64,000 nucleotides of DNA from a virus (IMGVR_UViG_3300037466_003757:54680-118679), one strand, 5' to 3'; shown: positions 24,043 to 45,591, numbered from the stretch's first letter. Translations and numbers: made by a program. The notes: generated from the letters alone by a model not told the origin.

Positions 24043-24453
24043 TCAAACGGTGACGGTTACCGGCGGGGTCGGTACACCAACGAGACGTGCCGATGGCCAG
24101 CCTCGATATGCACGAAGAACGGATCCGCAACCGCACCCTCTGGCAGGTGTAACGACTAAAAGCTGTCCAGTATTCAATACCAATTGAATACTCGATGTCG
24201 TAAACGTCGTGATGCGTTGAACCTGTTCGGCGACTGTGACAGGCGGAGTTCCGCCCGTCTGACTACCGACCCATACGATCGCGACCCACGATGACGGATC
24301 CGCCGGATCACTTGGGCCGTCCGGTCCCGGAATCTGCGCCATTGCGAATCGTGCCGGTGACACGCCCTGGGAATCCAGGACAACTTGTACCGGAAAACGC
24401 GATGCAGCGACGCGGACGACACCATCGCTCACCAGCGAATCGAGATCGTACAT
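24043..24453 (-). CDS. hypothetical protein
   Basis: 136 aa. Confidence 0.4.
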   Translation of the reverse strand: MYDLDSLVSDGVVRVAASRFPVQVVLDSQGVSPARFAMAQIPGPDGPSDPADPSSWVAIVWVGSQTGGTPPVTVAEQVQRITTFTTSSIQLVLNTGQLLVVTPARGCGCGSVLRAYRGWPSARLVGVPTPPVTVTV

Positions 24454-24454
24454 G

Positions 24455-26389
24455 TCAGTTTCCGTCCATCAAATAAGAGTCGTTACCCGAACGAGCTCCG
24501 AGTTGTTTCGGTCCGGACAGCATGTCAAGCACGATTTCCGGTTTATTCAAGCACATCCACAGCAACGGTTTGCCACCGAACGAAGCCGGTCGGTCGTATC
24601 CATCCGGTTGTTCGGTCTCATCCAGCCATTTGTCGATTGCATCCTTGATCGCTGGAGTCAAGAATATGGTTAGTGCGTGATCCAGTCCGTCGGATTTGTC
24701 CGTCATTACAACGTCGATGTCCTGATCGCTGTGATCGCGGAAACTCGCGTGAACCAGATGCTGCGTCGTCCATGCGGGCGCCCAATGATACGAAACGGAT
24801 CCGAAACCGGGTCGTCCGGTTCCGTCCTTGTCGTCCGAATCACGATTCCATTGAGCCGTTGCCTGCATGAGCAAGACTTCGGAGAACAAATTGCCGTTTT
24901 TCCATTCACTACGTGGCATCACGGACGGATACCAATAGCGATCTACTCCGTATACAGCAGCGGCGAAATCACGATCCTGCAACGCCGCATTGAGTGGAAT
25001 GCTCTTACGCTGTCGCAGCGATTCGAGCATTTTGTCGCATCGCGCGATCAATTTCTCACGGTCGCTGGAGATCGATACGGGCTCGTATCCGCTCTTACCC
25101 GCTGCAGACTTGATCACGTTCATCACCGCGCTGGGTGCGCATGTGTCCAATTTCATCAACTTCGCGACATCGGCGTTGACCGGCGCCGTGAGCGCATAAA
25201 CGTTGACGACCGGAGATTGATTATTCTCGGTCGCTTCGTGAGTTTTGACCTGCAGTAAGATATCGCCGCCAGTTCCCTGTGAACGCAGACGTTGACATAC
25301 GGTCATACGCTTCAACAGACGTGCATCGGCGTACAGCCAACTGTCATCGGTCTCGTTTTCGCTGTGAGCGATGTCACGAGGAATGAAACACCGAACCGCA
25401 TGTACGAGATCATCGACCGGTGCCCAAACTCCGTCGCCTTCCGGCGCGTTTTCACCAACGGTCATCGATCGTTCGAAACGCGCGAATACGGCACGATGTG
25501 TGACACCCATACACATAGCCAAGTTCTGCGCGGTCATTCCGCGACGAAGAAGCAGATCTAGCATCAGATCCAGAACCCACGAACAAACTTGTTCTTCCAG
25601 GGTCGATTTCGCACCACGTGACTTGTACGAGACACGCCATAGTGCACGCATCGCAGTCGCAATTTCTTGCGGAGGAAGTGCGACGACCTTCCGAAGAACA
25701 AGGCCGGATCGTTTCGTTCGGAAATCGGACGTTCGAACATCGAGAAGTGCTCGACCGCTGGCTCCATCGGTATCAGATGCCGTATGCGGCACGTTCGCCG
25801 CAGCGTTCAACAACGCTTCTTCTTGCTCGCTGACTGGTTCGTTGATGTGCGTCATGACCCACTTATTGACGGTGGGTCGTGATACGTCCAGGATATCGGC
25901 GATAGTTCGAACTTGCCAGCCCAGCTCGGTGAACAAAACCGACATCACAGCTCCCGCACGCGATCGTGACGGGAACGACGCGTAGACCGCGTCCGCGTAA
26001 GCTCTGTGGTAACTCCGAACATCGGTGACCAGATCGGGCTGTCCATCGGGAAGAAGACGAATACAGACGCTAGGCGCTTCTGCGTTGTCGACCCCGGCGG
26101 ACTTGTCGTACTCGTTCGTGAACTGTCGAATCTCGTTGTCTTCGTACGGCGTGTTATCGGCGCGTACGAGCGCATAGCTCGGGATTCTCCCAGAAGCAAG
26201 TAAGATTCGAACGCTCGAAACGAGCGGCTGGTCCCAGGTCAGTTTGGTCAAGTTGACCGCACTGATCTCATCGATGTCGGGTGTTTCTAGCCGATTATTG
26301 TCGACTGCTGTGCCCGCGTCCATGTCTATCTCACTCTCTCCTGCGCATGCATCTCCGTGTTTGTGTGTCAGCGTCCATGTCTGTATCAC
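24455..26389 (-). CDS. large DNA-binding protein with two HTH motifs
   Basis: IADILDVSRPTVNKWV and LAMCMGVTHRAVFARF HTH motifs; 644 aa. Confidence 0.55.
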   Translation of the reverse strand: MIQTWTLTHKHGDACAGESEIDMDAGTAVDNNRLETPDIDEISAVNLTKLTWDQPLVSSVRILLASGRIPSYALVRADNTPYEDNEIRQFTNEYDKSAGVDNAEAPSVCIRLLPDGQPDLVTDVRSYHRAYADAVYASFPSRSRAGAVMSVLFTELGWQVRTIADILDVSRPTVNKWVMTHINEPVSEQEEALLNAAANVPHTASDTDGASGRALLDVRTSDFRTKRSGLVLRKVVALPPQEIATAMRALWRVSYKSRGAKSTLEEQVCSWVLDLMLDLLLRRGMTAQNLAMCMGVTHRAVFARFERSMTVGENAPEGDGVWAPVDDLVHAVRCFIPRDIAHSENETDDSWLYADARLLKRMTVCQRLRSQGTGGDILLQVKTHEATENNQSPVVNVYALTAPVNADVAKLMKLDTCAPSAVMNVIKSAAGKSGYEPVSISSDREKLIARCDKMLESLRQRKSIPLNAALQDRDFAAAVYGVDRYWYPSVMPRSEWKNGNLFSEVLLMQATAQWNRDSDDKDGTGRPGFGSVSYHWAPAWTTQHLVHASFRDHSDQDIDVVMTDKSDGLDHALTIFLTPAIKDAIDKWLDETEQPDGYDRPASFGGKPLLWMCLNKPEIVLDMLSGPKQLGARSGNDSYLMDGN

Positions 26390-26521: not shown

Positions 26522-28279
26522 TTAACGAGAAAAATGAGTTGGCGGACGATATAAACGGTTATCGAGAGCTCGTAGACTGGACGAACCCATCGTAGACGGA
26601 AGATTCATCCGAGACGGTCGTCCGGCCTTCCGTAATTGCTTGTGAGCGTCTTCGTCTTCATCGATATACGGTTCGAGATCACTTTCCGGAATATCGGTCG
26701 CGACACGAAGACGTTCCTTGATCTCTTTTTTGCTCTTACCGGATGTGCCCCATCGCGACGAAACGTGATGACCGGTGAGCGGATCGTGATCGCGAACCGC
26801 GGCAAGATGACGTTCGGAGAGATCCGCTGCCATCTGCACCTTGCCCAGCCAGCCTTTCGGTGATTTGACGAGCAATGCGGTGAGACCGTGAACGGTAGCG
26901 TCCAAACGGTCAGGAGATGCGAGACCATGACCAGGAGCCCAACCGGTCCATTGGGATTCGAGCATACCGAACGCCATGTTGTCACCGCAGTGATGTATAC
27001 GTCCACGCTGATACGCTGCCGCAACCGGCTCGGCACGTTCGAACTTGGACACTCCCGCATGAACGAGCAATACCGGCACACGCGGATCGATACCCTGAAT
27101 GACCATACGTACCATCTCGCCACCTTGATTCGCCTCAGCGATGACGGGTGCGCGGTATTTACGGGCGAGTTTGACGACGCGACTAGCCCACATTTCGGGA
27201 GGACCGAGCAAACTACCGTCTTCGAGAACGAATCCCTGACGTGCGTAGAGTTTTTTCTCGCCGGTTGCACCGACCGCGACGATACCGCATTCATCGTTCG
27301 GATGTGCCGAAACGGACGGGTCGACACCGATCGCGCGGAACGGAAGCGTCTTCCAGAACTCGGGCGCGTGTTCGAGCGAGAAATGCACTGTACGTGAATC
27401 ATCGATAACGCTCTGTGTGAGAAGCGCGCCATCGACGTCAGTGAGAAGTTCACCCTCCAGCTCTTGCTTGCCGAGCGTGGTACCCTCATAGAGACCAGCG
27501 ACCGTGGCCTGATAGTCGACAGACAAATGCCGGTTCGCGTACGTAGAACCACGAATCAACAAAACGCTGTCAGGATTCTCTTCGGCCTGTTTGACTAAAC
27601 CGAGGGTGACTTCGTTGCGTTTCGGCGTGGTCGCGACCCAAATCTGCGGATGAGAACCGAGACGCGTGGAGAGCTTGATCTGATCGAAAGCGTTGATCAA
27701 TCCGGAGTTCGCATTGGAACGATACGAACTGATTTCGTCCAGAAAGCTAGCGTGTTGCTGCGAACCACGGATGGCGTCGGGTCGTTCCGCGGAGAACGTA
27801 ATTGCTTCAGATCCGTTCTTCCATACGAGACGTCGGACCATCGGTTTGAATTCGGGACGTTCGGCCGGATCGATGACATTCATGATTCCACTGTCGCCGA
27901 GGATCATAACGTCACGTACGTCGGCGCTGGTACGTCCGACAAGCGCAAGACGCGATCCAGGATGATCCATGGCGTATTTGTGGATCGTTTTCGACAGCGC
28001 GAACGACTTGCCCCAACCACGACCGCAGAGAACCGCTGTGAGCGTTGCTGTCGAATTGATGAATTCGAGCTGAGAAGGCCGACACCAGAATCCGTTATCG
28101 TAAATCAGACCTTCGAAATTTTGTCCCGCAAGAATTTCTTCTTGCTGTTCTTGCGGAAGCATTGCGACTTTGTCGGCGAGCGACATGTCTTCTTCGGGCG
28201 AATAGTATCTGCCCAGGCCCTTTGCGGGAACGTACGCTTGCCGTGTACGCGGCGGCGCTTCGTCACTCGAATAAGCCAT
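26522..28279 (-). CDS. terL: terminase large subunit
   Basis: Walker A LCGRGWGKS; C-terminal RNaseH-like nuclease region VDPSVSAHPNDECGIVAVG; 585 aa. Confidence 0.85.
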   Translation of the reverse strand: MAYSSDEAPPRTRQAYVPAKGLGRYYSPEEDMSLADKVAMLPQEQQEEILAGQNFEGLIYDNGFWCRPSQLEFINSTATLTAVLCGRGWGKSFALSKTIHKYAMDHPGSRLALVGRTSADVRDVMILGDSGIMNVIDPAERPEFKPMVRRLVWKNGSEAITFSAERPDAIRGSQQHASFLDEISSYRSNANSGLINAFDQIKLSTRLGSHPQIWVATTPKRNEVTLGLVKQAEENPDSVLLIRGSTYANRHLSVDYQATVAGLYEGTTLGKQELEGELLTDVDGALLTQSVIDDSRTVHFSLEHAPEFWKTLPFRAIGVDPSVSAHPNDECGIVAVGATGEKKLYARQGFVLEDGSLLGPPEMWASRVVKLARKYRAPVIAEANQGGEMVRMVIQGIDPRVPVLLVHAGVSKFERAEPVAAAYQRGRIHHCGDNMAFGMLESQWTGWAPGHGLASPDRLDATVHGLTALLVKSPKGWLGKVQMAADLSERHLAAVRDHDPLTGHHVSSRWGTSGKSKKEIKERLRVATDIPESDLEPYIDEDEDAHKQLRKAGRPSRMNLPSTMGSSSLRALDNRLYRPPTHFSR

Positions 28280-29326: not shown

Positions 29327-29659
29327 TTAGTCGAGTTCTTTTCCGTACGCCCAGTCCAATGCCTGATCGCTGTCATCGAACTCTTTCATTCGCGGATATC
29401 GCTGAATAGGATCGTCGTCCTGCCATGCGACTCCCACTGACGATTGAACACCGCTGCCCCAGGTGTCAGCACGAATAAAAACGTGTGTCTCGTCAGAGAT
29501 TTTGACGACCTGATAATAGTCTGTGTTTTTGACCTTGTACGCGAGACGTACCAGAATCCACGCGATCCAGTATCGAAATCCGAATTCTTTGATACACCAA
29601 TATTCGGGATACACGCGGAGAGAGGAGTACTCGAAACTCACGAACGTCAAACGCCGCAT
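29327..29659 (-). CDS. hypothetical protein
   Basis: 110 aa. Confidence 0.45.
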   Translation of the reverse strand: MRRLTFVSFEYSSLRVYPEYWCIKEFGFRYWIAWILVRLAYKVKNTDYYQVVKISDETHVFIRADTWGSGVQSSVGVAWQDDDPIQRYPRMKEFDDSDQALDWAYGKELD

Positions 29660-29782: not shown

Positions 29783-29808
29783 TTCGCTCGCCATGTTCAG
29801 TTATCAAG

Positions 29809-29879
29809 CTCCCGGTGACGGATTCGAACCACCATTTTCCGTTCCAGAGACGGACGTCTTGCCATTAGACGAACCAGGA
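29809..29879 (-). tRNA. tRNA-Gln(CTG)
   Basis: Cloverleaf: acceptor TCCTGGT/ACCGGGA, anticodon loop CTCTGGA, T-loop TTCGAAT. Confidence 0.7.
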
Positions 29880-29965
29880 TTGGCTATTCAGTTACTGTCC
29901 ATCCAACGTGACCAGATTTGTTCTGATGCTTGTTGATTTCCGTTGGAGTTTATTTAATTGTTAAG

Positions 29966-30036
29966 CTGCCCCGCCAGGATTCGGACCTGGGCTAACTGAA
30001 CCAAAGTCAGTCGTGCTGCCGCTACACTACGGAGCA
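29966..30036 (-). tRNA. tRNA-Gln(TTG)
   Basis: Acceptor TGCTCCG/CGGGGCA, T8A9, anticodon loop CTTTGGT, T-loop TCCGAAT. Confidence 0.65.
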
Positions 30037-30085
30037 TTGCGTTCGTTTTCTACGGTATCACGAAACGCGCTGAGATGAAACTCAA

Positions 30086-30415
30086 TTACGATCGCGAATT
30101 GCGACGACCGCGAGTCCCGACGAGTCCGATTTTTTCACCACGCGCGACACGAACGCGGAGATCGAGCAGATCGCGATGAGCTTTCGTCATCGACGTCACG
30201 GCGCGTTCGTACGCCTGGTCGTGGGTTTCGTTCGCTCCGGCGAGAGTGATCGCCGAATAAACCGACGTACCGTTTTCCTTGATGTCCCAGAAAAACGAAC
30301 CCTCACGCGGCGAATCGATCGTGAAATTCCACTCGTTCGTGGTTTCGTCGTACACGGTGCTCATCTTCGTCTCCTGTCTCGTATACCGACGGACGGAAGG
30401 CAGCATTCCCTCCAT
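30086..30415 (-). CDS. hypothetical protein
   Basis: 109 aa. Confidence 0.45.
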   Translation of the reverse strand: MEGMLPSVRRYTRQETKMSTVYDETTNEWNFTIDSPREGSFFWDIKENGTSVYSAITLAGANETHDQAYERAVTSMTKAHRDLLDLRVRVARGEKIGLVGTRGRRNSRS

Positions 30416-30511
30416 CTCGGGTCGAATGACTTACCCGATGCGATTTCATGGGGCGCTTTGTCCCGGTCTCTGTGCTTTCGGGATTTGACCTTCCAATCCG
30501 TCGATACGTCT

Positions 30512-30540
30512 ATCGTATCACACAGAAGACAACTTGTAAA
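30512..30540 (-). promoter_or_regulatory. sigma-A-type promoter TTTACA-N17-TACGAT
   Basis: Conserved family member. Confidence 0.6.
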
Positions 30541-30589
30541 ATCTTTCGATTCTCGAGTACTTTGTCCGATTTGAGTAAGAAAAGTCTGT

Positions 30590-30665
30590 CTCTAGAAACG
30601 ACTCAGACGCGCTTTCGGATCGAAGTCGATAAAATTATCGTCAACGTATTGTCAGCGCGTCTGAG
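30590..30665 (-). terminator. long hairpin, possible terminator
   Basis: 11-bp inverted repeat CTCAGACGCGC/GCGCGTCTGAG followed by UCGUUUCU. Confidence 0.35.
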
Positions 30666-30681
30666 ACGTACCTGGACGTTA

Positions 30682-31437
30682 CTACCTGAATCCGCCGTTG
30701 AATCCCGCCCTACGAACCGTGGAGAGCCAGTATTTGGCGAAATTCCCGTCCGGCTCTTCGGGAAGAACGGTGGGACTGTCGAATACGGACTCATATTCGC
30801 CGACCGCGTCGAACAATTTCTTGTTCGTGGTGTCTCGAGCGCACGCCTCGCCGAATGCATGATACGCGTCGGGATCGGACACGCGAACGCTCATGTCACC
30901 GGTCGTCCAAAGACTCTTACCACATTCCATGAGACGTAGTATATGCTTGGCATGCTTCGCCCGTCGGCGATCGTTCGGGTCAGTGTGACGATCGGTTACG
31001 AGACGAACCTGCTGGTTCATGAATCCCAGATACGAGTTACGAACCGACGGTGCGCTGAGAAACGATTGACGTTCCTGAACCAGCATGTCGCCGAGACCGG
31101 TGACAAACGATCGGTCATCGTCCGCTGCCCACAGTACTTCCAGCATCGTGGGATTACACTTCAGCGCCAGCCGGCAAAACTTGCCCGCCTCGTGAAAGGC
31201 GAAGTCTTCGTGTTCGCCGTGCTCGCTCCATGTCTGATCACGTTCGCTGGGTGGAAACAGCCCGTCCAATACTCCGGGCGGTTCGGCGAATACGCCGTGC
31301 CAGTCCATGTCCGACTCCGGCGTATTCGTTCCGTACGCGTGGGAGCCGCAGAGGACCTGCAAGAGCATTTGACTATCGCGGGGTCGTGCGCTCCTCATTG
31401 TCCTTGTCCTTTCAGTCTTTCGGATCGCGTAGGTCAA
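30682..31437 (-). CDS. nucleotidyltransferase (pol-beta superfamily, ANT/minimal-NTase-like)
   Basis: LCGSHAYGTNTPESDMDWHGVF matches the GS...SDxD NTase signature. Confidence 0.6.
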   Translation of the reverse strand: MTYAIRKTERTRTMRSARPRDSQMLLQVLCGSHAYGTNTPESDMDWHGVFAEPPGVLDGLFPPSERDQTWSEHGEHEDFAFHEAGKFCRLALKCNPTMLEVLWAADDDRSFVTGLGDMLVQERQSFLSAPSVRNSYLGFMNQQVRLVTDRHTDPNDRRRAKHAKHILRLMECGKSLWTTGDMSVRVSDPDAYHAFGEACARDTTNKKLFDAVGEYESVFDSPTVLPEEPDGNFAKYWLSTVRRAGFNGGFR

Positions 31438-31520
31438 ACCAACGCTTGATACCGTACCAAACCGCGCATACCGCGAGGATTAACGGTATTATTTCCAACA
31501 GTTTGACGATCATTTTATTC

Positions 31521-32441
31521 CTACCGAGGACCGACAATGACCGGAGAACCGGCCGGAACGGGTACAACACCGCTGATTTTGCCGTCTTTGATCGCCTGAA
31601 GAAGCACGTATGCATTGACGTCGCCACCGAGTGCTGCGATCAACGGTCGGATACCGTCCGCCTCGGACAGAATCTGCGCGTTTCGCTGCAGCTGCGCCGC
31701 GTTGTCGGCTTGAGCGCGTGCGAATGCCTCAACGGATTTACGCAGATCGTCCGGAATACCCGGCTTCTGCAGAACGGTTCCACTGATAGTGAAGTAACTG
31801 TCACCCATCGCCTGGTCGACCAGACCTTTGACCGCGGGGATTTTGCCGTCAGGAGAAGCAGGCGTGCCCTTGAGCAGGGTCTCCACTTCGGCGGACCACT
31901 TGTTCATGGCGTCACCGTTATTGGTGTACAGATCGGTCCACTTGTACTTCTGCGTAGCCTGCGTGACAGCCAGCTTGATTGCGTGCGCCAAATACGTCTG
32001 GAGCAGCTTCTCCCAATCCTTACCGTTATCGAACTTGATACCGATCTGCTCGTGGAACTTCTGCAGTTTCTTGCAATCGGACGTCAACTCGAACTGAACC
32101 TGGCCGCTCACCGCCAATTGAACTTGATCCGACGACGGAGCGAGCAATGCGGACGTATCGCCGATCAGATCACCGTCCGGCTTGTTGTCCTTTCGTTCGT
32201 CCGAGAAAACATACGTTCGCTGACCGGCGGGATAGATGGATGCGTTCTTGGTCACCGACTCCACTTTACGAGTGGATGGATCCACGCAATTGGAGAACGT
32301 TTTGGACGTCGCCATACCACCGCTGTAAACCACTGCTCGCTCGTCCGGCGCGGTACTCACCACCGTACAACCGGTGACCGCGACCGTCACACCCACAGCA
32401 GCGATTGCGGCGAAACCGCCACGCTGAATCTTGTTGTTCAC
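31521..32441 (-). CDS. lipoprotein
   Basis: Signal peptide with lipobox VTGC. Confidence 0.55.
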   Translation of the reverse strand: MNNKIQRGGFAAIAAVGVTVAVTGCTVVSTAPDERAVVYSGGMATSKTFSNCVDPSTRKVESVTKNASIYPAGQRTYVFSDERKDNKPDGDLIGDTSALLAPSSDQVQLAVSGQVQFELTSDCKKLQKFHEQIGIKFDNGKDWEKLLQTYLAHAIKLAVTQATQKYKWTDLYTNNGDAMNKWSAEVETLLKGTPASPDGKIPAVKGLVDQAMGDSYFTISGTVLQKPGIPDDLRKSVEAFARAQADNAAQLQRNAQILSEADGIRPLIAALGGDVNAYVLLQAIKDGKISGVVPVPAGSPVIVGPR

Positions 32442-32482
32442 TGATTTCCTCGTTTCCTGTTCGGTTTCAACTTCGTGTCAGA

Positions 32483-32524
32483 AAGTTTGTGAGACGAAAA
32501 CGGCGCGACTCCCACAATACGAGC
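32483..32524 (-). terminator. intrinsic terminator downstream of the Ro60 gene
   Basis: AACGGCGCG...CGCGCCGTT stem followed by TTTCGTC. Confidence 0.5.
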
Positions 32525-32705
32525 GCCGCGCCGTTCATCGATTGTTACTTCGCGTGATGCCGAAGCCAAAGCTCCAACAATAGTGATCTGACAACCGGAT
32601 CACCATCGCCGGTCTCATTGATCGGATGATAGTGATTTTCGAAAATGTAGGCCATCAACGCTTCTGCGTCGACAACTTTTCCTCGAAGTTCCGGATATTT
32701 GACCA

Positions 32706-34367
32706 TCAGATACGACCGAGTGCGAAGTCGGCCATCAACTGGGGTGTCGCCGTATCGAAACCGGCGACGTTCAACGAACCCGGATCCTTCGGATCCGCGA
32801 TCGTCCAGTCGGTTGCGGTCATTCCCACAACGATCAATCGTGCATTCGGATTGATCTTGTTGCGGTACATTTCGAGTGCCTTGTGTGGATGAACGTCACC
32901 CGCCCAGTTTTCGCTGTCCGTATAGATCGTGAAAACGTCGATCTTCGTCTTGGTCTCCAACGCCCACCGCATCGGCAACGCGCAGTCGGTTCCACCCGCA
33001 CGTGTACGACCGACGACACTAATGGCGTCCGTCAGTCGCTGATGCGGCGAAATACCCAACGGAGCGATGCCCCAGTCACTGTAATAGCTACGTCGCGACG
33101 ACTTAGTACTCGGAGTCCAGGTGTGACCCGCAAGACCAGACGAGAACGCCGTGATCACGTGCTCCGGTTCGACCTTCGCCGTGACGAGAGCCATGACAGT
33201 TGCCGCGTCACGAGGCGTGATCGACATTTTGGCGATGTTGTCCCAAGTCATCGATCCGGAGACATCGATCGCCAACATGTGCGTCTTGCCGGTGGACTCG
33301 ACCGTATCGAACGATGCGTAGAACGCGGCGTCGAGTGCGTCCACGATCCGTTGAACCGGAGTCCAACGATTCGAGCCCTTCTCGCCGTGACCACGCTCGT
33401 AGACCCTCATCGCGTTGAGAATGGAAAGCGGATGTACGCGCGCCTTCTTCAAACGTTCCGGATCGGTGAGCTGATCGCAGACACGCTGCGTCCATTCGGC
33501 ACCGACCTGCGCAACGAGACCGACGTTCGTCAACGTGGGCAGATTACGCAAGAGCGCAGTCTGTGGCATACCCGATTCGAGCAATGCCTCCCATACGTCC
33601 GGACGCTTCAACGCATCGGTGGGTACCATTTCGCGAACGAGACGATACTCACGAACTATTTGCGCCACCTCGCTGGGCTTCGCCGCACGTGCTTTCTGGA
33701 AACCCTCCACGATACGGATACCGTCGCCCGACCAGTTCGGATCGTAACCCAGTGCCCATCGGAACAAACGACGCTGCTGCTCGTCCTTCGGCTTCGGGTG
33801 ATCGAGCTGGATGATTCGCCGCGGCGTCCAGTCGTTCCGATTGCGATACTTGGTGATTTGATACGCGGTCTTGTTCGTGTCCTCGGTCAGCCACTTCTCG
33901 ATCGCGCGCTTGAACGCCGTACTACCGACACCGCGCATCGCCTTCGAGTAACCCATAAACGTGTACAGCGCCGTAGCGGTACGCGCCACCTGAGGCAGAG
34001 CGGCGAGTGCAGCGCGTCGACCTTCGACATCCGAGGATGCGGCTGCGGCTGCGAGAGCGAACAGAGCGGGTTCCTGCTTCGCCGCGCGACCGCTGACGGA
34101 CACGTCCACGGCTGCGTTGACGAGCTTGATCGGATTCTTCTCTGCGAGTTCGCGAACGATCTTGACGTTCTCGATCGCCAGATCACGGGCCTTCACATAA
34201 TACGTGCCGCCCTCGACTCCGAGAATCAGGAAACGGTTGAGACGCGCGTCCTCATCGACGGTGAATACGTAACCACCGGCGTTGTTCTTGACCTGGGCAG
34301 GATCCACCTTCTCGGTCGCGGGAACCGTGCGTGTGACCGCTTCGGTGAGTGCGTCGAATGTCGCCAT
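32706..34367 (-). CDS. rsr: Ro60/TROVE-domain ribonucleoprotein with C-terminal vWA domain (Rsr-like)
   Basis: TROVE-like N-terminal two-thirds; C-terminal MIDAS motif AIDVSGSMT; 553 aa. Confidence 0.75.
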   Translation of the reverse strand: MATFDALTEAVTRTVPATEKVDPAQVKNNAGGYVFTVDEDARLNRFLILGVEGGTYYVKARDLAIENVKIVRELAEKNPIKLVNAAVDVSVSGRAAKQEPALFALAAAAASSDVEGRRAALAALPQVARTATALYTFMGYSKAMRGVGSTAFKRAIEKWLTEDTNKTAYQITKYRNRNDWTPRRIIQLDHPKPKDEQQRRLFRWALGYDPNWSGDGIRIVEGFQKARAAKPSEVAQIVREYRLVREMVPTDALKRPDVWEALLESGMPQTALLRNLPTLTNVGLVAQVGAEWTQRVCDQLTDPERLKKARVHPLSILNAMRVYERGHGEKGSNRWTPVQRIVDALDAAFYASFDTVESTGKTHMLAIDVSGSMTWDNIAKMSITPRDAATVMALVTAKVEPEHVITAFSSGLAGHTWTPSTKSSRRSYYSDWGIAPLGISPHQRLTDAISVVGRTRAGGTDCALPMRWALETKTKIDVFTIYTDSENWAGDVHPHKALEMYRNKINPNARLIVVGMTATDWTIADPKDPGSLNVAGFDTATPQLMADFALGRI

Positions 34368-34379
34368 GTCGTGTCTTCT

Positions 34380-35330
34380 TTCGTGGATGGAGTGTGAACG
34401 AGTCTGTTGACGAACGGCTGTTTATTCACTGTGGTGGAGTGGGTTCGATAACCGTACATCGGGAGTTCACACCGACATTCCGTTCGAGACGGGCAGTCGG
34501 AAAAGACGAACGAGTCAGGCGTGTCCGGAATTGACGTCCGGGAGTTACCCGAGAACGTATTGGATTCGAACCAATAATACCAGCGATAACCGGAACACAA
34601 AGAGTTCGTTTTATCCCACTGTCCGTTTCAGAATGGGAGACGTAGAAAGTAGACGATATCGAACGAAAACGCATGCCAATCGGGTTTGTGTGCTCCCAAT
34701 AGCGATAACCGACTAACAAATGAGTTCGATATCGACTGCCTCCTACGTCCATAAATCGAACGTTTATCGTGTGATCGGGAGAGCCGAACGAATCGGGCGC
34801 TGCTCGGATCTGGTGTCTGATGCTCTGCCAATTGGAGCTACCGACTTGCGTCGGACGGGACTCGAACCCGTAACCATCGGATTTGATTCGATAACCGAAC
34901 AACAAAGAGTTCGACTCTCCGAATCACACGATAAGGGAGGCGGGACGCGAAAGAGGAGCAACGCCGAACGAAACGGGTGCATTGTCGGGGTTTAGAGCTT
35001 TACCAATTAAGCTACCGCCCCATGAGCGGAGCGGACCGGACTCGAACCGGTATCCCTCGTTTTCTAGACGATAACCGACTTCGCGGGGAGTTCGGCGCTG
35101 CTCGTCTTCAACGTCCCTTATTCAATTGTCAACGTACGTAATAAGGATGGGGATTCGAACGAATCGATGATAACCGATGAATTGTATTAGCAGTACGATA
35201 ACCGGAAATCGGGAGTTCGAATCCCTCTAGCCCTTACCCATCTAGTTCGTTCTAACGCCTTTGCGATCCTGGAGGAGCGTTTTTTGGCGTTTCGATCGAA
35301 CGAGATTTATCGTATCACGCTTCAGTCGAA
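34380..35330. repeat. array of tRNA-like repeat units (CGATAACCG ... GAGTTCGA) and tRNA half-like fragments
   Basis: Six or more units with GATAACCG followed 8-12 nt later by a GAGTTCGA-type T-loop; canonical 5'-half and 3'-half tRNA sequences in non-canonical order. Confidence 0.5.
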
Positions 35331-35378
35331 AAGCGAAATCTTTTTTCTGAAGTTCTATTGTTCGACGTAGAAGCGTTT

Positions 35379-35783
35379 TTACAAACCGAGTGAGGCCTTC
35401 CATGCCTCATCGGAACCTTTGAACCAGACGGGTGCATCTTCGAAATCGTTGAAGTCGGGATTGTCCGCGACAGATACGTCCTCCACGAATTCGATCAATC
35501 GTGCCGCGATATCCGGATGACTAACAGACATCAATTTGGCGAAGTGATGCACGCCGGTTGCTGTACGCGTCCCTGCCTGACTCAACACATCGAGTGACTC
35601 GATCCACGTCAGAAGCTTCTCCGCCGTCGAAAGCGGAAGAACGACACGCTGATTATCGGCACCCTTGCTTTCACGATCCTTCGCCTGGTCGATTTCTTCG
35701 CGCAAACGTCTCGTCGCACGAAATCCATTGAGTACGGTCGGACCGTCGGGATGAATGTTAGTCATTGTCCTTGTCCTTGTCAT
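35379..35783 (-). CDS. hypothetical protein
   Basis: 134 aa. Confidence 0.45.
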   Translation of the reverse strand: MTRTRTMTNIHPDGPTVLNGFRATRRLREEIDQAKDRESKGADNQRVVLPLSTAEKLLTWIESLDVLSQAGTRTATGVHHFAKLMSVSHPDIAARLIEFVEDVSVADNPDFNDFEDAPVWFKGSDEAWKASLGL

Positions 35784-36441
35784 TGTCCTTGTTCTTGTCC
35801 TTGTCCTTGTCCTTGTCCTGTCTCTCTTTGATCATTTTGACGATTTCGCCCAACGGAACTGGACCCATACCCCATGCGTCCGGACCGACGTTGATCTCAC
35901 GATCGGTGGTCCATGGTTCGGACTGATGCGTATGACCGTGCAACAGATAGTGATTGACGGTCACAACGTGTCGCAATCTCCACTGCAAATCACGTGCCTC
36001 GTCGGTGTGATCCGCCTCCAGGGGATAATGCGATAATACGAAACGAATTCCGTCGCTTTTCACCATCGCCTCGGTACCGATCCATTCGAACGCTCCGCTT
36101 TCGACGTACGTCTTCCACCAGACGAACGAACGAGATCCATGGCGAGGGTGCGGTCCGTCGTGGTTACCCAGAATCAACCGTTTGGATCCTGGCAACGTCA
36201 CCATGATATCCAAAGCGTGCTCTTGCGCCCGTGCACCGCCGGCAGACAGATCACCCAATACGTAGATCGTATCGGACGGCTGAATACGTTTACGCCAGAA
36301 GTGCTGCAACGTTCGATCGTGCGCTTCGATCGTCGAGAATCCGCGATGCTCGACCGCTACTTTCTCATGACCGAAATGCAGATCGGACGTGACCCAAATT
36401 GCCATTGTCGTCTCATTTCGCATGGCGTGGTCGATGACCAC
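35758..36441 (-). CDS. metallophosphoesterase (calcineurin-like) with KD-repeat tail
   Basis: DLHFGH and GNHD motifs; C-terminal DKDKDKDKNKDNDKDKD encoded by GACAAG repeats. Confidence 0.7.
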   Translation of the reverse strand: MVIDHAMRNETTMAIWVTSDLHFGHEKVAVEHRGFSTIEAHDRTLQHFWRKRIQPSDTIYVLGDLSAGGARAQEHALDIMVTLPGSKRLILGNHDGPHPRHGSRSFVWWKTYVESGAFEWIGTEAMVKSDGIRFVLSHYPLEADHTDEARDLQWRLRHVVTVNHYLLHGHTHQSEPWTTDREINVGPDAWGMGPVPLGEIVKMIKERQDKDKDKDKNKDNDKDKDND

Positions 36442-36733
36442 GTTCGATCTCGCTCGCTACTGGCTGCAATTGTCCGCCGATCCACTGGAAACCGGGAATA
36501 CCGGATCCACCGTGCATGTAATCGTCGTCGCCTTCATCGGCACGTGCGGACAGCGCCTCGATCTGCTTACGTGCTTCTTCGCGTTGCGCATTGATTTTCG
36601 CGCGATGCTTGCGCCAGAGCTTCCAGGCGACGTACAGCGCGATGAAAAGCAGAATCCAGAGCCAAAATCGGATGACTGCGTAAAGCGTCAGGGCACCGAT
36701 GAAGATCAGGATGCCTATTGCTGTCTTTCGCAT
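36413..36733 (-). CDS. membrane protein
   Basis: Two TM helices. Confidence 0.45.
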   Translation of the reverse strand: MRKTAIGILIFIGALTLYAVIRFWLWILLFIALYVAWKLWRKHRAKINAQREEARKQIEALSARADEGDDDYMHGGSGIPGFQWIGGQLQPVASEIERGHRPRHAK

Positions 36734-36829
36734 CGTATCTCCTTCAGTGATCCCGTTGTTATACCAAAAAGACGTCGGATTTAACGCCTTACCGTACGTA
36801 TATCGCCGTATTTCGCGGTTTTATTCCAG

Positions 36830-37372
36830 CTACGCTGTCAGATCGCCGTGGCGCTTTTCGACCAGTTTCCAGATATAACGCTGGAGCTTGTCATCGTACT
36901 TCGGAATACGGGGCGGCCATAACAAAAGCATACCGGCTTCCTCGGGCGTACGGTCCGCCTTACCCTCGTTACACGGCGAACACGCTGCGATCAAGTTGAT
37001 CCAAGTATCCTTGCCGCCACGCGACTTGGGAATGATGTGATCGACGGTCGCAGCGAACTCGCCGCAATAGCCGCACTTGCTCTTGTCACGACGGAGAACG
37101 CCGATGGGCGTCGCCTTCGAGTTCTCATCGATGATCACGTGATGCTTGACCACCACGTAATTGAGCATTCGGATGACTTTGGGAAGCAAGATCATTTCGT
37201 GCTGTGAACGAATCGGAAACTCGGGTACGTAATCCTCCAGTGACTCCGCCTGACCCAGTCCGAGCAATACGATCGCTCGCGTTGCCGGTATTCGCTCCAG
37301 TGGTTCGTATGTGGCGTTCACGACGACGACCTCAGCAGTCATCCAGTTGGACGCGTTCAGCCTTCTACTCAT
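36830..37372 (-). CDS. HNH endonuclease
   Basis: CGYCG...VDHIIP...N...CSPCN HNH motif. Confidence 0.7.
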   Translation of the reverse strand: MSRRLNASNWMTAEVVVVNATYEPLERIPATRAIVLLGLGQAESLEDYVPEFPIRSQHEMILLPKVIRMLNYVVVKHHVIIDENSKATPIGVLRRDKSKCGYCGEFAATVDHIIPKSRGGKDTWINLIAACSPCNEGKADRTPEEAGMLLLWPPRIPKYDDKLQRYIWKLVEKRHGDLTA

Positions 37373-37409
37373 CTCGCCTCCCTCCGTTCATCTCGTAGTT
37401 GTTGAATCT

Positions 37410-37781: not shown

Positions 37782-38300
37782 CTATTTGGTCTTGGTGGGT
37801 ACGCTTCCTCGAAGCTGACGAGTCGTCGGTGCGGAATTGGCCGCGGTGGTCTTGGGAGCCGGTGCTTGAGTCGTGGTCTTCGCTGGTGCCGTCGTGGTCA
37901 CCGCCGCGGTCGTCGTCTTCGGCGGAACGCCGAGTCCACCGCGTGTCACCTTACCGCCGTTTTCGGGCGCGCCACCCGGCTGAACCGACGGCGTCTTGCC
38001 GTTCGTGGCAGGCGGCGGATTGAAGATGTTGACCGTCTTGTTGTTGATGACGGTCGTTTGCTGCACTGCGGCGTTCATTCGCGGTACGGTCGCGCCGACC
38101 GGATAATAACTCCAACGATCGCCGTAGTTACCGCGACAGAACGAGTCCGGAATACGGGTCATCGTGACCGGATTCACGCAAACCTCCACGTAATCGTAGG
38201 AGGCACCGGACGACGGTGGCGTTTTGCACGCCGCCGTTCCGCTGATCATCGCGGCTCCTGCGACGACCGCGAAGACCGTGTTCCTCATCTGATGTGTCAT
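37782..38300 (-). CDS. Thr/Pro-rich secreted lipoprotein
   Basis: Lipobox GTAAC; TTAAVTTTAPAKTTT low-complexity region. Confidence 0.5.
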   Translation of the reverse strand: MTHQMRNTVFAVVAGAAMISGTAACKTPPSSGASYDYVEVCVNPVTMTRIPDSFCRGNYGDRWSYYPVGATVPRMNAAVQQTTVINNKTVNIFNPPPATNGKTPSVQPGGAPENGGKVTRGGLGVPPKTTTAAVTTTAPAKTTTQAPAPKTTAANSAPTTRQLRGSVPTKTK

Positions 38301-39430
38301 GTCTGTTTCTCTGCTTCCTTCTCGTAGATATCCCTGGACGCAATCCAGATATCCTTCAGAATCGTCTTGGCGACGTATCGGACGGCGCGTGCGTGCTTGT
38401 GACCGTCGGACAATGGGGAACCCGGTTGTGCCGGTTTACCGGACGGACCGCAACGAATGCACATTGTCGCGTGTTCGGCGTCCGCGTACTTGACGCGCGC
38501 TTCCCGATAAATCGTCTCGTAGTGACTTCCCGGGAATTTCGGCATCGCCGATGCGATCACCCAGATCCGTTTACGAGCCGTCTCCGACCAGTTGGATTGG
38601 TGACCGCGTCGCCGTCGCGGCGCCGTACCGTCGCCGGTGACGTGCAATCCGCAATACGCCCACAATTCGCGAACAGTTCGTGGACGACCATCGAAGTCGT
38701 GCCAATACGGATCGCCGATCGCGGCGAGCAATCGCGCCATTTGCTTCTCGCCGAGACCCTTGTGTTTCTTCTGAAATTCGATCAACGGGTGACCACGCAT
38801 TGCGCGTTGCAAGTTCAACGTGGCTTCGTGTTCGAGCTTTTTCATTTGCTCGACCAACGCCGCGGTCTTGGCGACGGCGATGTGATCATCGCTGAGACCG
38901 TATCCCTTGGGATCTCCGTTCTCGTTCACTTCCGTTCTGGTCAATGCCAGATAGCGATTCGAATTGGCGATACGAACACCTTCGACATCATCCAATATTT
39001 CCGCGGCGATCGTCAAGAGAGGATCGCGAAGAAAACCGCCGAAGCTAGTGTATGCATGGCTATCACCTTTTGCATGAACTTCGACGGGGTTGGATTCGCT
39101 GCGTCCAGTAGTGGGGTGGCCATCAGGTGTACCATGGGACGCAGCGAAGTTGGAGCCGTTGCCGACAGAGCCACTTTGGCTATCAACCGCGATATGATCG
39201 ACAACGGAGTTTGAACCGTCGAGCTCACTAGTGTTATGGCTATCACCTGTAGCATGGAGTTCGACGGAGTTGGAACCAGCGACAACATAAGTGTGTTGGC
39301 TAACAGCAGTGCGGTGGTCGTCGCTGGGGCTGAATCCGTCGTTGACAATGGTGCGGTGGCTATCAAACCTACTATGGTCAACGACGGAAATCTGTGTGGC
39401 GAGCTGAGCTCGAGCCGAAAAGTCTGTCAT
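38297..39430 (-). CDS. protein with IS110-family transposase-like C-terminal HhH domain and His/Ser-rich repeats
   Basis: GLGEKQMARLLAAIGD...YCGLHVTGDG...RRRRGH resembles the IS110 C-terminal domain; the N-terminal half is repetitive (HATGDSHNTSELDGSNS). Confidence 0.45.
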   Translation of the reverse strand: MTDFSARAQLATQISVVDHSRFDSHRTIVNDGFSPSDDHRTAVSQHTYVVAGSNSVELHATGDSHNTSELDGSNSVVDHIAVDSQSGSVGNGSNFAASHGTPDGHPTTGRSESNPVEVHAKGDSHAYTSFGGFLRDPLLTIAAEILDDVEGVRIANSNRYLALTRTEVNENGDPKGYGLSDDHIAVAKTAALVEQMKKLEHEATLNLQRAMRGHPLIEFQKKHKGLGEKQMARLLAAIGDPYWHDFDGRPRTVRELWAYCGLHVTGDGTAPRRRRGHQSNWSETARKRIWVIASAMPKFPGSHYETIYREARVKYADAEHATMCIRCGPSGKPAQPGSPLSDGHKHARAVRYVAKTILKDIWIASRDIYEKEAEKQT

Positions 39431-42305: not shown

Positions 42306-42761
42306 TCAATTTCCTTTCTGATCTCCGTGTACGACACGAAGTTCCAAGTGTTCCATCAGCAACGTGAACAATTCGATCTCGTTCGCTGGGAACCGGAAAA
42401 CACTGAATGCGTTTCCGTGAGTCTCATGCGACCACAATGTCTCGTTTACGTCGTACGACGGAATATCGACAGGGTCTGAATCCGGTTCGTGAATACGCTT
42501 CAGGGCGTAACCGAAGCGATAGTACAGCGGAGGCCATTGAAACAGAATGAGACCGTATTCGATCGTGTCGAACAATCGCCGAACCGTATCCACACCGTGG
42601 AACGCGATATAAGCGCGTTGCTCGGTTTCGCCCTGACACGAAAACGCGGTCTTGAATCCCGCCGTATTCAGTGCCTCCAATAGTTTTTGCAGACGTTCGT
42701 CCACTGTTACGCCTGGCCATCGCTCACCGAGTGGCACCTGTACGTGATTGTGCGTATGCAC
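42306..42761 (-). CDS. hypothetical protein
   Basis: 151 aa. Confidence 0.5.
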   Translation of the reverse strand: MHTHNHVQVPLGERWPGVTVDERLQKLLEALNTAGFKTAFSCQGETEQRAYIAFHGVDTVRRLFDTIEYGLILFQWPPLYYRFGYALKRIHEPDSDPVDIPSYDVNETLWSHETHGNAFSVFRFPANEIELFTLLMEHLELRVVHGDQKGN

Positions 42762-44374: not shown

Positions 44375-44781
44375 AGGGTCCCCGACCGCGTAGCCTACGG
44401 CCGGGGCGCTTCAATGAGTACGGTATAACGCACGACGATAGCATTTAACTCGGGAGATGAATCTAATACCATGATGTTCTGCCATTGAACTACCGGACCA
44501 TGATAGCGGTCCGGACGGGACTCGAACCCGTACGTATATGGTGTCGTCTCCGTCGGTCGATCCGTCGTGCACCGACAGGTTGCTGAGACTAGAGCAATAA
44601 CCTGAGCCTGATACGGCCCGTCTGCCTCTACCGAGTTGGGCTACCCTCGCATGGAGTGCGAAGGGCAGGATTCGAACCTGCACTGGGACGGGATACGTGT
44701 GAGCTTGAGTTTAATTCTCAGTCTCTGCCCCAACATCGTGGGGCAATCCGGGTGCTCTACGCCCGGAAATCTATGAGTCGA
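44375..44781 (-). ncRNA. cluster of degenerate tRNA-like fragments (T-arms, D-arm-like 5' halves, palindromic GGTCCGGACC)
   Basis: Two good T-arms (ACGGG-TTCGAGT-CCCGT and GCAGG-TTCGAAT-CCTGC) and a GGTCCGG-TA-GTTC-AATGGCA-GAAC 5'-half, but no acceptor pairing in any canonical order. Confidence 0.35.
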
Positions 44782-45591
44782 TTACTCGACTGTTGCGTCC
44801 TTCGCCGCATTGATCGGAGCGAACATATAGTCGAGCAGTGGCTGTGCGACCTGGTAGTCGTTTACCTCTACGTTGTTCGCTTCCTCGCGGGCGAATTTCA
44901 CCGCGTTACGTAGCTTTTCGATCCGTTCGGCAGTCTCGGCGACCGTGTCGTACGGAAGACCACCGGACAAGTTGATCTGCGACCACGTACCCTGAACGAC
45001 GTCCTCGTGAATCAACTGCACCTGAGCCGGATGCTTGTCCGTCGCCGGCGACAATTGGAACGATTTGGGCTCCTTCTTGGTCTTGAACGTCTCGACCTTG
45101 TCGGAAATCCAAACGCCCTTGGCAGCGTCGTACGTCCACGACTGTTCCGGATCGAGAACCGGGAAGTTGGAAATGAACGTAGCGAGATCGGTCAACTGTT
45201 TCTCGAGAAACAGCATGTATGTGACCGGTACGTCCGTCGCCAACGTCTGACCGTCCACGACGATGTCGGCTTTCGCGCCAGCGTTCGCTACCTCGTGGGT
45301 GAAAACAAGGTCGAACAACCGGGTGAGGAGCTTCGTGACCTCGTCCATGACGACCGCGGAACGAACCTGCACGAGCTGCGATTCGTTCGGGAAAACGTCG
45401 CCGTCCTCGGTCTTCGGCTTGTACGTCCGAATCCGACCCTTCCAGAGACCGTCCTTACTGAGGGTCCGGTAGAGTTCGGTCCATCGCGTGGTCGTCTTGT
45501 GCTTGACACCCTTCTCGACCGACACGATCTGATTCAGTTTTGTCAAGGTTTTTCCTGTCTTGTCTGATTTTCGTATCTCATATTCGCCCAT
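44782..45591 (-). CDS. hypothetical protein
   Basis: 269 aa. Confidence 0.55.
   Translation of the reverse strand: MGEYEIRKSDKTGKTLTKLNQIVSVEKGVKHKTTTRWTELYRTLSKDGLWKGRIRTYKPKTEDGDVFPNESQLVQVRSAVVMDEVTKLLTRLFDLVFTHEVANAGAKADIVVDGQTLATDVPVTYMLFLEKQLTDLATFISNFPVLDPEQSWTYDAAKGVWISDKVETFKTKKEPKSFQLSPATDKHPAQVQLIHEDVVQGTWSQINLSGGLPYDTVAETAERIEKLRNAVKFAREEANNVEVNDYQVAQPLLDYMFAPINAAKDATVE

Follow-up and report, generated by a model that had tools for sequence, protein, structure and literature searches.

Do the genes that surround a Ro60 gene in an uncultured phage form one RNA-processing module, or does a known pair of Ro60 and its RNAs stand among unrelated neighbours? The locus in question lies in a 64,000-nucleotide stretch of viral DNA (IMGVR_UViG_3300037466_003757:54680-118679; below, the window, to which positions refer unless another locus is named), which is part of a 172,958-bp JGI metagenome contig. 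An earlier note had described here a Ro60-vWA protein with a metal-ion-dependent adhesion site (MIDAS), a nucleotidyltransferase (NTase) with a GS...DxD motif and a phosphoesterase, all within 6 kb, with two tRNA-Gln genes on one side and tRNA-like repeats in between. These genes and the tRNA pair are found where the note had put them; the three genes span 5.76 kb and, like every module gene discussed here, lie on the minus strand. The range given for the set, 32706-36441, omits the NTase gene that the description includes (30682-31437), and a Band-7/SPFH gene between Ro60 and the NTase gene had been passed over. The tRNA-like repeats are real as well, with the motif GGTTATC above chance in the gap between Ro60 and the phosphoesterase gene, but their predicted identity as Y RNAs had been missed. 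We consider it fairly probable that the locus is a phage Ro60–Y RNA ribonucleoprotein (RNP) module with an attached RNA 3'-end nucleotidyltransferase. The genes concerned are the following.

29808-29879, minus strand: tRNA-Gln(CUG), on one flank of the gene set
29965-30036, minus strand: tRNA-Gln(UUG), on the same flank
30682-31437, minus strand: Pol-beta nucleotidyltransferase of the RlaP family (PF10127); probable true start at 31368
31521-32441, minus strand: SPFH/Band-7 lipoprotein between Ro60 and RlaP (PF01145, E = 4.3e-7; phrog_200, 'lipoprotein')
32545-32706, minus strand: open reading frame (ORF) of 53 aa, its start overlapping the Ro60 stop by one base
32706-34367, minus strand: Ro60/Rsr orthologue of 553 aa, a TROVE HEAT-repeat ring plus a vWA domain with MIDAS (Pfam, phrog_850, PDB 2nvo)
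35379-35783, minus strand: 134-aa ORF between the phosphoesterase gene and the Y RNA array, overlapping the former by 26 nt
35758-36441, minus strand: metallophosphoesterase (MPE; PF12850/PF00149); probable true start at 36405

The product of 32706-34367 is a Ro60/Rsr orthologue, composed of a TROVE ring and a vWA domain with intact MIDAS. Pfam identifies both parts (PF25045 vWA_Ro60, E = 1.3e-54; PF05731 TROVE, E = 2.9e-40), phrog_850 matches with an E-value of 4e-83, and comparison with known structures gives 4.5e-111 for Deinococcus radiodurans Rsr (2nvo) and about 1e-101 for the Xenopus and human Ro60 proteins. The MIDAS residues D368, S370, S372, T460 and D484 show no variation in an alignment of 16 sequences, and the closest relatives are 51-57% identical.

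The tRNA-like array between Ro60 and the MPE gene is, as far as sequence can tell, the set of Y RNA partners of Ro60: six Y-RNA-like genes that form the core of the module. It fills the 1,011-nt gap at 34368-35378 between Ro60 and the MPE side, and its units (34400-35235) lie on the same strand as Ro60, 33-868 nt upstream of the Ro60 start.

34942-35117, minus strand: unit A, YrlA-type, with a long closing stem, GCCGAAC plus GGUUAUC, T arm, acceptor-like (AS) hairpin and D arm
34764-34934, minus strand: unit B, YrlA-type
34639-34749, minus strand: unit C, short and YrlB-like, with a closing stem and CGAAC...GGUUAUC, without a tRNA-like domain
34481-34621, minus strand: unit E, a degenerate YrlA-type copy that keeps CGAAC, GGUUAUC and a perfect hairpin resembling a T arm
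35140-35235, minus strand: unit D, short, with two GGUUAUC motifs (35169-35175 and 35197-35203)
34400-34480, minus strand: unit F, weak, short and Ro60-proximal, with GGUUAUC at 34447-34453, 87 nt upstream of the Ro60 start

The gap holds three units of 111-176 nt, each closed by an inverted repeat of 26-28 nt, whose folds are far more stable than those of shuffled controls: unit A (28-nt repeat I2; minimum free energy (MFE) -78.8 kcal/mol, z = -4.6), unit B (26-nt repeat I1; -74.3 kcal/mol, z = -6.0, with the T, AS and D hairpins present in the MFE fold) and unit C (26-nt repeat I3; -45 kcal/mol, z = -6.4). Unit D is built on an 11-bp perfect inverted repeat, I6 (GGGAUUCGAAC/GUUCGAAUCCC; z = -2.9). 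GGTTATC occurs 17 times in the window where 5.9 are expected, and seven of the 17 fall within 34447-35203; CGAAC precedes it in most units. The 5' motif GNCGAAN0-1G appears as GCCGAAC in unit A, GUCGAAC in B and AUCGAAC in C, each lacking the final G, and as GCGAA.G or GCCGGAG in L004/L006 and other phages (L numbers denote loci). A GGUUAUC module, often followed by the T arm GGGUUCGAAUCCC, also precedes Ro60 in phages BearBQ and Cali and in many uncultured phages.

The YrlA-type architecture is supported by an alignment of 24 units, namely A, B and 22 units from other phage Ro60 loci, on which a covariance model (R1) was based. Its consensus comprises an outer stem, an inner stem, the T arm, the acceptor-like hairpin and the D arm; compensatory changes occur at 22 of the 28 pairs, with covariation in the T, AS and D helices. 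R1 scores units A and B at 97 and 89.9 bits, both being in the training set, and recovers unit E from outside it over the full model length (27.2 bits, E = 1.6e-7); the tRNA-like domain of E consists of the T arm only. At other loci outside the training set, full-length units were found upstream of Ro60 in L021 (101.5 and 82.7 bits), L172 (99.2), Cali (98.7) and L010 (90.1), and L049 gave 121, 117 and 72 bits upstream of Ro60. RNAalifold found no consensus for the short units, whose variable loops MAFFT cannot align, and a register search was ambiguous; these units were judged by per-sequence folds. Short units built like unit C are also present in other phage Ro60 loci. Array size varies from two modules in L172 and four in L004 to five YrlA-type units in L048 and six units (seven motifs) in the window, and 74 other phage loci carry 0-5 GGTTATC modules each. 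That Ro60 and its Y RNAs form a real unit is a conclusion we hold with high confidence.

Further observations concern Y-like RNAs and their surroundings. A short GGUUAUC unit precedes the Ro60 start at a nearly constant distance of 76-113 nt in many unrelated phage lineages (L004, L006, L002, L003, L037, L071 and L052), and the Ro60-proximal unit may serve in addition as a leader of the Ro60 mRNA or an element of its autoregulation. Two orphan permuted tRNA-like domains (44475-44531 and 44623-44681, minus strand; R1 48.5 and 40.5 bits), each with T arm, hairpin and D arm and without GGUUAUC or a Ro60-binding stem, overlap none of the ARAGORN tRNAs and lie just downstream of a DUF7873 gene; the AS loop of the first is similar to that of unit A. 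Most R1 matches within the tRNA array are junctions of tandem tRNAs, a type of false positive noted by Chen et al., and a match to rne5 at 35141-35333 was discounted, its 16 bits being far from the gathering score of 180. In the Mycobacterium abscessus prophages prophiGD43A-5 and prophiT37-1 (L089 4335-4577 and L173 2344-2586), a BrnT-like RNase toxin is encoded just upstream of a 1.4-kb Y RNA gap and Ro60, accompanied in prophiGD43A-5 by an annotated antitoxin; a 'tRNA-Thr' annotated in the Y RNA gap of prophiGD43A-5 may be part of a YrlA.

The NTase is predicted to be a member of the RlaP family, and not an ANT, CCA-adding enzyme or CD-NTase. Pfam assigns PF10127 (E = 9.9e-18, 65.2 bits against a cut-off of 23) and no other NTase family, phrog_388 matches with an E-value of 2e-32, and PF10127 is found in all 57 NTase homologues. 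In the motif G31-S32...D43-x-D45 plus D78, the residues G31, S32 and D43 are invariant, and D45 and D78 are conserved at 90% or more. The JGI gene call begins at M24, so the gene probably extends over 30682-31368. Pseudomonas RlaPs add one or two nucleoside monophosphates to RNA 3'-OH ends with a preference for damaged RNA, and RlaP is required to restore aminoacylation of over-damaged tRNA (PMC12776372); both ROT/TROVE and RlaP have been listed among the RNA-repair parts of phages (Iyer et al. 2021).

Conservation of the neighbourhood, a check that the earlier note had proposed, was found in three related uncultured phage lineages, where the block from HNH to terminase (26522-28279 in the window) is collinear with the window. 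The shared order is HNH, an ORF of about 105 aa, MPE, Y array, Ro60, (53-aa ORF), (zinc-finger protein), Band-7, RlaP, ..., the tRNA-Gln pair, ..., terminase. Identity to the window is 57% for Ro60, 56% for RlaP, 67% for Band-7 and 56% for MPE in L172; 51%, 46%, 55% and 49%, respectively, in L004/5; and 51% for Ro60 and 44% for RlaP in L006/7, a locus that begins just upstream of Ro60. Since genes without any RNA link are equally collinear, this synteny reflects shared descent and not function.

Evidence bearing on function was therefore taken from more distant lineages. A set of 80 Ro60 loci from IMG/VR, together with annotated phages, fell into 47 clusters at 75% Ro60 identity, 44 of them with at least 2.5 kb of downstream flank. 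RlaP is present in five of the 44: the window's own cluster, L004-7, L021, L048 and an M. abscessus prophage-type cluster. Each of the 11 RlaP ORFs is on the Ro60 strand, 0.3-2.05 kb downstream, and none occurs elsewhere in 1.21 Mb of flanks (Pfam-confirmed). Identity between these clusters is 41-51% for Ro60 and 23-48% for RlaP; the Ro60-then-RlaP arrangement extends to three further lineages unrelated to that of the window. In the M. abscessus prophage-type cluster, RlaP is found in five of 15 members, present or absent at the same position, and looks like a cassette travelling with Ro60; elements with the pair include L049, L060, L064, L069 and L088. L048 repeats the order MPE, Y array, Ro60, RlaP among different neighbours, including PolA. 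Position-specific recurrence in five of 44 divergent lineages, and nowhere else in the flanks, makes the Ro60–RlaP link look functional, and we place the functional membership of RlaP in the module just on the probable side of an even balance.

The position of the MPE is less telling. Its motifs DxH/GD/GNHD/H/GHxH are complete and invariant in 40 homologues, phrog_547 matches with an E-value of 1e-46, and the JGI gene call begins at M13 (35758-36405). The AlphaFold2 (AF2) model (pLDDT 96) is closest to 1xm7, the Aq_1665 protein of unknown function (E = 1.4e-11), followed by MJ0936, LpxH, PptH and YfcE; neither Pnkp nor lambda phosphatase is among the 50 fold matches listed, and NCBIfam gives only a sub-threshold LpxH. 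In L172, L004/5 and the independent L048 an MPE gene precedes the Y array; L048 is the only such case outside the window's lineage, its MPE gene lying 4 kb from Ro60, and in a few other loci the distance to Ro60 is 7-10 kb. A role in RNA 3'-end healing is possible on the strength of position, and it is doubtful that the MPE belongs to the module. Its C-terminal end is a low-complexity Lys/Asp tail (KDKDKDKNKDNDKDKDND; 35758-35830, minus strand) not seen in homologues. The overlapping 134-aa ORF has no match in Pfam, PHROGs, NCBIfam or PADLOC and no homologue in any related locus.

The Band-7 gene is conserved in L172 and L004 (at the identities given above), and SPFH genes also lie near Ro60 in L010 and L012. 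PADLOC returned a weak PDC-S15 match for the Band-7 protein and nothing for the other module proteins. Membership of Band-7 in the module seems improbable.

Several other genes recur behind Ro60. Homologues of the 53-aa ORF directly follow Ro60 in L004/5 (58%), L006/7 (53%) and L009 (54%) by BLAST; the ORF is missing from L172 and matches no Pfam or PHROGs family. A 110-aa ORF (29327-29659, minus strand; phrog_4319) is matched, with 30-38% identity across a short stretch, by ORFs located 1.4-3.6 kb behind Ro60 in the M. abscessus prophage-type cluster, and so is a second gene that recurs beside Ro60 outside the window's own lineage. Two phages unrelated to each other, Gordonia phage Sixama (L001 7819-7892) and L048 (11766-11841), have tRNA-Asn(GUU) immediately downstream of Ro60; in Sixama a transfer-messenger RNA (tmRNA) follows it, and two full-length YrlA-type matches lie downstream of Ro60 among the tRNAs.

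How might such a locus work? By analogy with D. radiodurans and Salmonella, in which tethering of polynucleotide phosphorylase (PNPase) by Rsr and Y RNA is established, and with Thermus phage phiLo, the Y RNAs would bind to the Ro60 ring, control access to its cavity and link the ring to a host RNA enzyme such as PNPase, and the tethered Ro60 would redirect, in the infected cell, how structured RNA is surveyed or degraded. The biochemistry of the family and the repeated adjacency suggest that RlaP, together with the Ro60 RNP, would extend damaged RNA 3'-OH ends by 1-2 nt, the likeliest substrates being tRNAs, of which the phage has 42, nicked or trimmed by host anticodon nucleases or toxins. 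More tentatively, the MPE might convert 2',3'-cyclic-phosphate or 3'-phosphate ends to the 3'-OH needed by RlaP. Resealing would need a ligase, which could be host RtcB or a distant phage gene; alternatively, the module could serve quality control and decay, and not ligation. There is also a small chance that actinobacteriophages, this one included, encode a ligase-independent Ro60–Y RNA–RlaP machine, in which the ring with a specialised Y RNA would capture damaged or misfolded tRNA 3' ends for RlaP, the MPE would clean up ends and RlaP would restore nucleotides as counter-defence against tRNA-targeting host toxins, and expansion of the Y array would diversify targets or partners.

Several results weigh against the Ro60–Y RNA module with attached RlaP that we favour. 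No YrlA is found at the Rfam gathering score (RF02553, 69 bits) in the window or in eight related loci, and the only Rfam YrlA matches in the gap are two sub-threshold ones, to unit A (34.9 bits, model positions 1-114) and unit B (42.4 bits, E = 1.3e-7). The folds of unit E alone (z = -1.1) and unit F (z = -0.5) are not significant, and promoter and terminator scans are at background level. Most phage lineages (39 of 44) have no RlaP near Ro60, and 79 of 80 bacterial Ro60 loci, mostly from Nocardia, have none adjacent, so Ro60 has no need of RlaP. The MPE fold carries no RNA-specific signal, and its family occurs in 1,165 phage records from many hosts, mostly without Ro60. All the Ro60-linked SPFH proteins have a predicted signal peptide and a lipobox Cys, which predict export and make a cytosolic scaffold role of Band-7 doubtful. 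No RNA ligase, polynucleotide kinase or cyclase was detected by Pfam in 20 minus-strand ORFs of at least 110 aa at 37-64 kb, a scan that left out a few overlapping ORFs (e.g. 57580-58086) and those of 1-26 kb; nor does any appear in the precomputed annotation of the 10 kb past the window end or among the scanned RlaP neighbours, about 100 kb of the 173-kb genome lying outside the 74 kb examined. The reading proposed in the earlier note is supported in part. Of its pair of RNA 3'-end healing or tailing activities, the NTase is borne out as a member of an RNA-repair family, but none of the fold matches listed for the MPE is an RNA end-healing phosphatase; and the proposed tRNA or non-coding-RNA maintenance or counter-defence module is supported by the recurrence of Ro60 and RlaP in unrelated lineages, but not by the MPE, whose link is weak, nor by a ligase.

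One alternative is that only Ro60 and the Y RNAs are a functional unit and that RlaP, Band-7 and MPE are unrelated accessory genes that share an early or accessory region of this phage lineage and are kept in order by descent. The collinearity from HNH to terminase in L172, L004 and L006 includes genes without RNA links, most Ro60 phages (Sixama, BearBQ, Cali, prophiGD43A-5 and prophiT37-1 among them) have no NTase or MPE adjoining Ro60, and MPEs are common where Ro60 is absent. A close RlaP homologue, P0127 (43% identical), from another actinophage contig, is associated with an RNA ligase and not with Ro60: its gene directly follows a PF09414 RNA ligase gene and overlaps its stop, an arrangement that at the same time ties the NTase to RNA repair. 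Descent alone, however, does not readily place RlaP downstream of Ro60 in five lineages as divergent as those described, and nowhere else in the Ro60 flanks, nor does it fit its cassette-like presence and absence at one position in the M. abscessus prophage-type cluster or the L048 order beside different neighbours. We regard this alternative as unlikely, though it deserves to be taken seriously.

Two other explanations change the role of one component, and both appear far-fetched. The NTase could be a HalB-type maker of a signal or polymer, perhaps an oligodeoxyadenylate-supplying counter-measure, or an ANT-type small-molecule adenylyltransferase, since Foldseek places its confident AF2 model (pLDDT 95.8) nearest to Hailong HalB (9dbh, E = 4.9e-6, TM score 0.48-0.50), with aminoglycoside ANT(4') following (E about 4e-3, TM score about 0.38, 8-11% identity), in a PDB copy that contains no RlaP structure. 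The HalB match has only 13-16% identity and a root-mean-square deviation above 11 A, however, and a profile of 40 RlaP sequences finds neither HalB nor any ANT. The Pfam score for RlaP is well over its cut-off with no ANT family matched, so that the ANT-type result which the earlier note had regarded as damaging to its reading did not emerge; PADLOC gives no match for the NTase, its 43% homologue shares an operon with an RNA ligase, and RNA is the substrate of those RlaPs that have been characterised. Among scanned neighbours no channel-type HalA-like partner was matched in Pfam, PHROG or PADLOC; a 106-aa ORF at 36413-36733 with a weak DUF4381 match may be membrane-spanning. Equally improbable is that the Y array consists of tRNA-mimic decoys or sponges for host tRNA nucleases or tRNA-modifying enzymes, with Ro60 merely stabilising them and the neighbours irrelevant. 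The T and D arms of units A and B, the T arm of E, the expanded arrays of the window and L048 and the two orphan tRNA-like domains at 44475-44681 would suit such a function, as would the reported action of tRNA-modifying enzymes on YrlA (PMC4201824). Three of the six units, however, have no tRNA-like domain, and that of YrlA is without the anticodon loop needed by anticodon nucleases (architecture in PMC4201824).

The wider window fits an actinobacterial phage. A LysB-type PE-PPE/cutinase esterase is encoded at 54045-54821, and we infer from it a host with mycolic acids. The same phage was detected in Logan run SRR35106392, and megablast of 30000-37400 against 50,697 deposited phage records gave no match; relatives in IMG/VR were found by an alignment query, a single-protein scan of IMG/VR having found none. 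The first part of the window (1-26 kb) resembles a structural module (portal, terminase), and L172 carries homologues of 24455-26389 and 24043-24453 downstream of its terminase. All 42 tRNA genes of the window are on the minus strand. The otherwise near-complete phage tRNA set contains unusual calls: one with a four-base anticodon (GUAC; 51159-51234, minus strand), and others listed with 42553-42646 and 52022-52091 (minus strand), namely two tRNA-Ile(UAU) and a tRNA-Asn(AUU). Embedded in the tRNA array is the DUF7873 gene (44782-45591, minus strand; PF25283, E = 2.8e-91), whose product has homologues in 75 phage records from widely differing hosts, with Vibrio, Gordonia, Rhizobium and jumbo Klebsiella/Serratia phages represented, and no match in PDB, NCBIfam, PHROG or PADLOC.

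A 377-aa ORF (38297-39430, minus strand) matches the TIGR-Tas RNA-guided endonuclease family NF052498 of NCBIfam (E = 1.6e-64, 218 bits against a cut-off of 100) over residues 140-366 only. Three direct repeats of about 39 nt (39056-39274; spacing 120 and 60 nt) overlap its first 140 or so codons and may be a TIGR guide array instead of coding sequence; Tandem Repeats Finder (TRF) found no repeat in this region, and L172 has no homologue of the ORF at the corresponding place. In the same phage, a Macro-domain protein (L090 2983-3726) is encoded about 7 kb past window position 64000, and genes for a Prim-Pol, a thymidylate synthase and a second cutinase-like protein also lie just outside the window. 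Macro domains are sometimes linked to the processing of RNA 2'-phosphate and ADP-ribose.

Literature searches turned up biochemistry of a phage Ro60 only from 2025, and the first report of RlaP activity came at the end of that year. Earlier work already covers both the phage Ro60–Y RNA combination and RlaP in phages. In the literature searched, two features appear to be unreported: a Ro60-then-RlaP arrangement at a fixed relative position, with no ligase adjoining it, in several actinophage lineages; and Y arrays of five to six units. A phosphoesterase and expanded Y RNA arrays sometimes go with the arrangement. It yields a testable hypothesis, that Ro60 RNPs and an enzyme that restores 3' ends act jointly on damaged tRNA in the course of infection, for which M. 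abscessus prophage-type elements with and without RlaP, and several cultured Gordonia and Mycobacterium phages with Ro60, are tractable models. If RlaP and Ro60 act independently, the locus simply adds one more case of a phage Ro60 paired with Y RNAs, as already described. Burroughs and Aravind are said to have described, in 2016, a general 'syntax' of RNA repair that combines an NTase, an end-modifier, a scaffold and a non-coding RNA.

Among the known systems close to the locus are those in which YrlA lies beside Ro60, reported from 254 bacteria and 22 phages (Chen et al. 2014, PMC4201824; RF02553). As there, where the criterion was 4 kb, the Y RNA genes stand within 1 kb of Ro60 on the same strand, and units A and B carry the Ro60-binding stem, a YUAY-containing GGUUAUC, T arm, AS hairpin and D arm of YrlA; the short units without a tRNA-like domain recall Salmonella YrlB. 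Unlike those systems, the window has its units upstream of Ro60, their GNCGAAN0-1G motif and Rfam scores fall short of YrlA as described above, and there are six of them instead of the one or two typical of reported Ro60/YrlA loci. Phage phiLo offers another parallel: its Ro60 is described as binding two phage Yrl RNAs and host PNPase in a complex that attenuates PNPase (PMC12135203), so that both phages combine their own Ro60 with Y-like RNAs and presumably capture a host RNA enzyme. The two are nevertheless very distant in sequence (9l5y/9kop TROVE chains, E = 1.7e-6) and differ in host, Thermus as opposed to the mycolic-acid actinobacterium suggested by LysB, and the phiLo Discussion mentions no RlaP, MPE or Band-7 neighbours.

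RNA-repair systems based on RtcB or other RNA ligases provide a further comparison. Rsr with Y RNAs or, alternatively, Band-7 with a tRNA-like RNA have been proposed as ligation cofactors in RtcB systems (Burroughs & Aravind 2016, as relayed in bioRxiv 10.1101/312249), and the window likewise has RlaP, a phosphoesterase, candidate scaffolds (Ro60 and Band-7) and tRNA-like RNAs. It departs from them in that no ligase was found in the 74 kb examined, its Band-7 protein is a predicted exported lipoprotein and its phosphoesterase is generic. The NTase family, PF10127, is the one known from RNA ligase–RlaP pairs of phages (the T4 NrdC.11 family; jumbo phages, PMC7824862), and it owes its name to such adjacency to a ligase gene; in the window and four other phage lineages, however, RlaP follows Ro60 and not a ligase.

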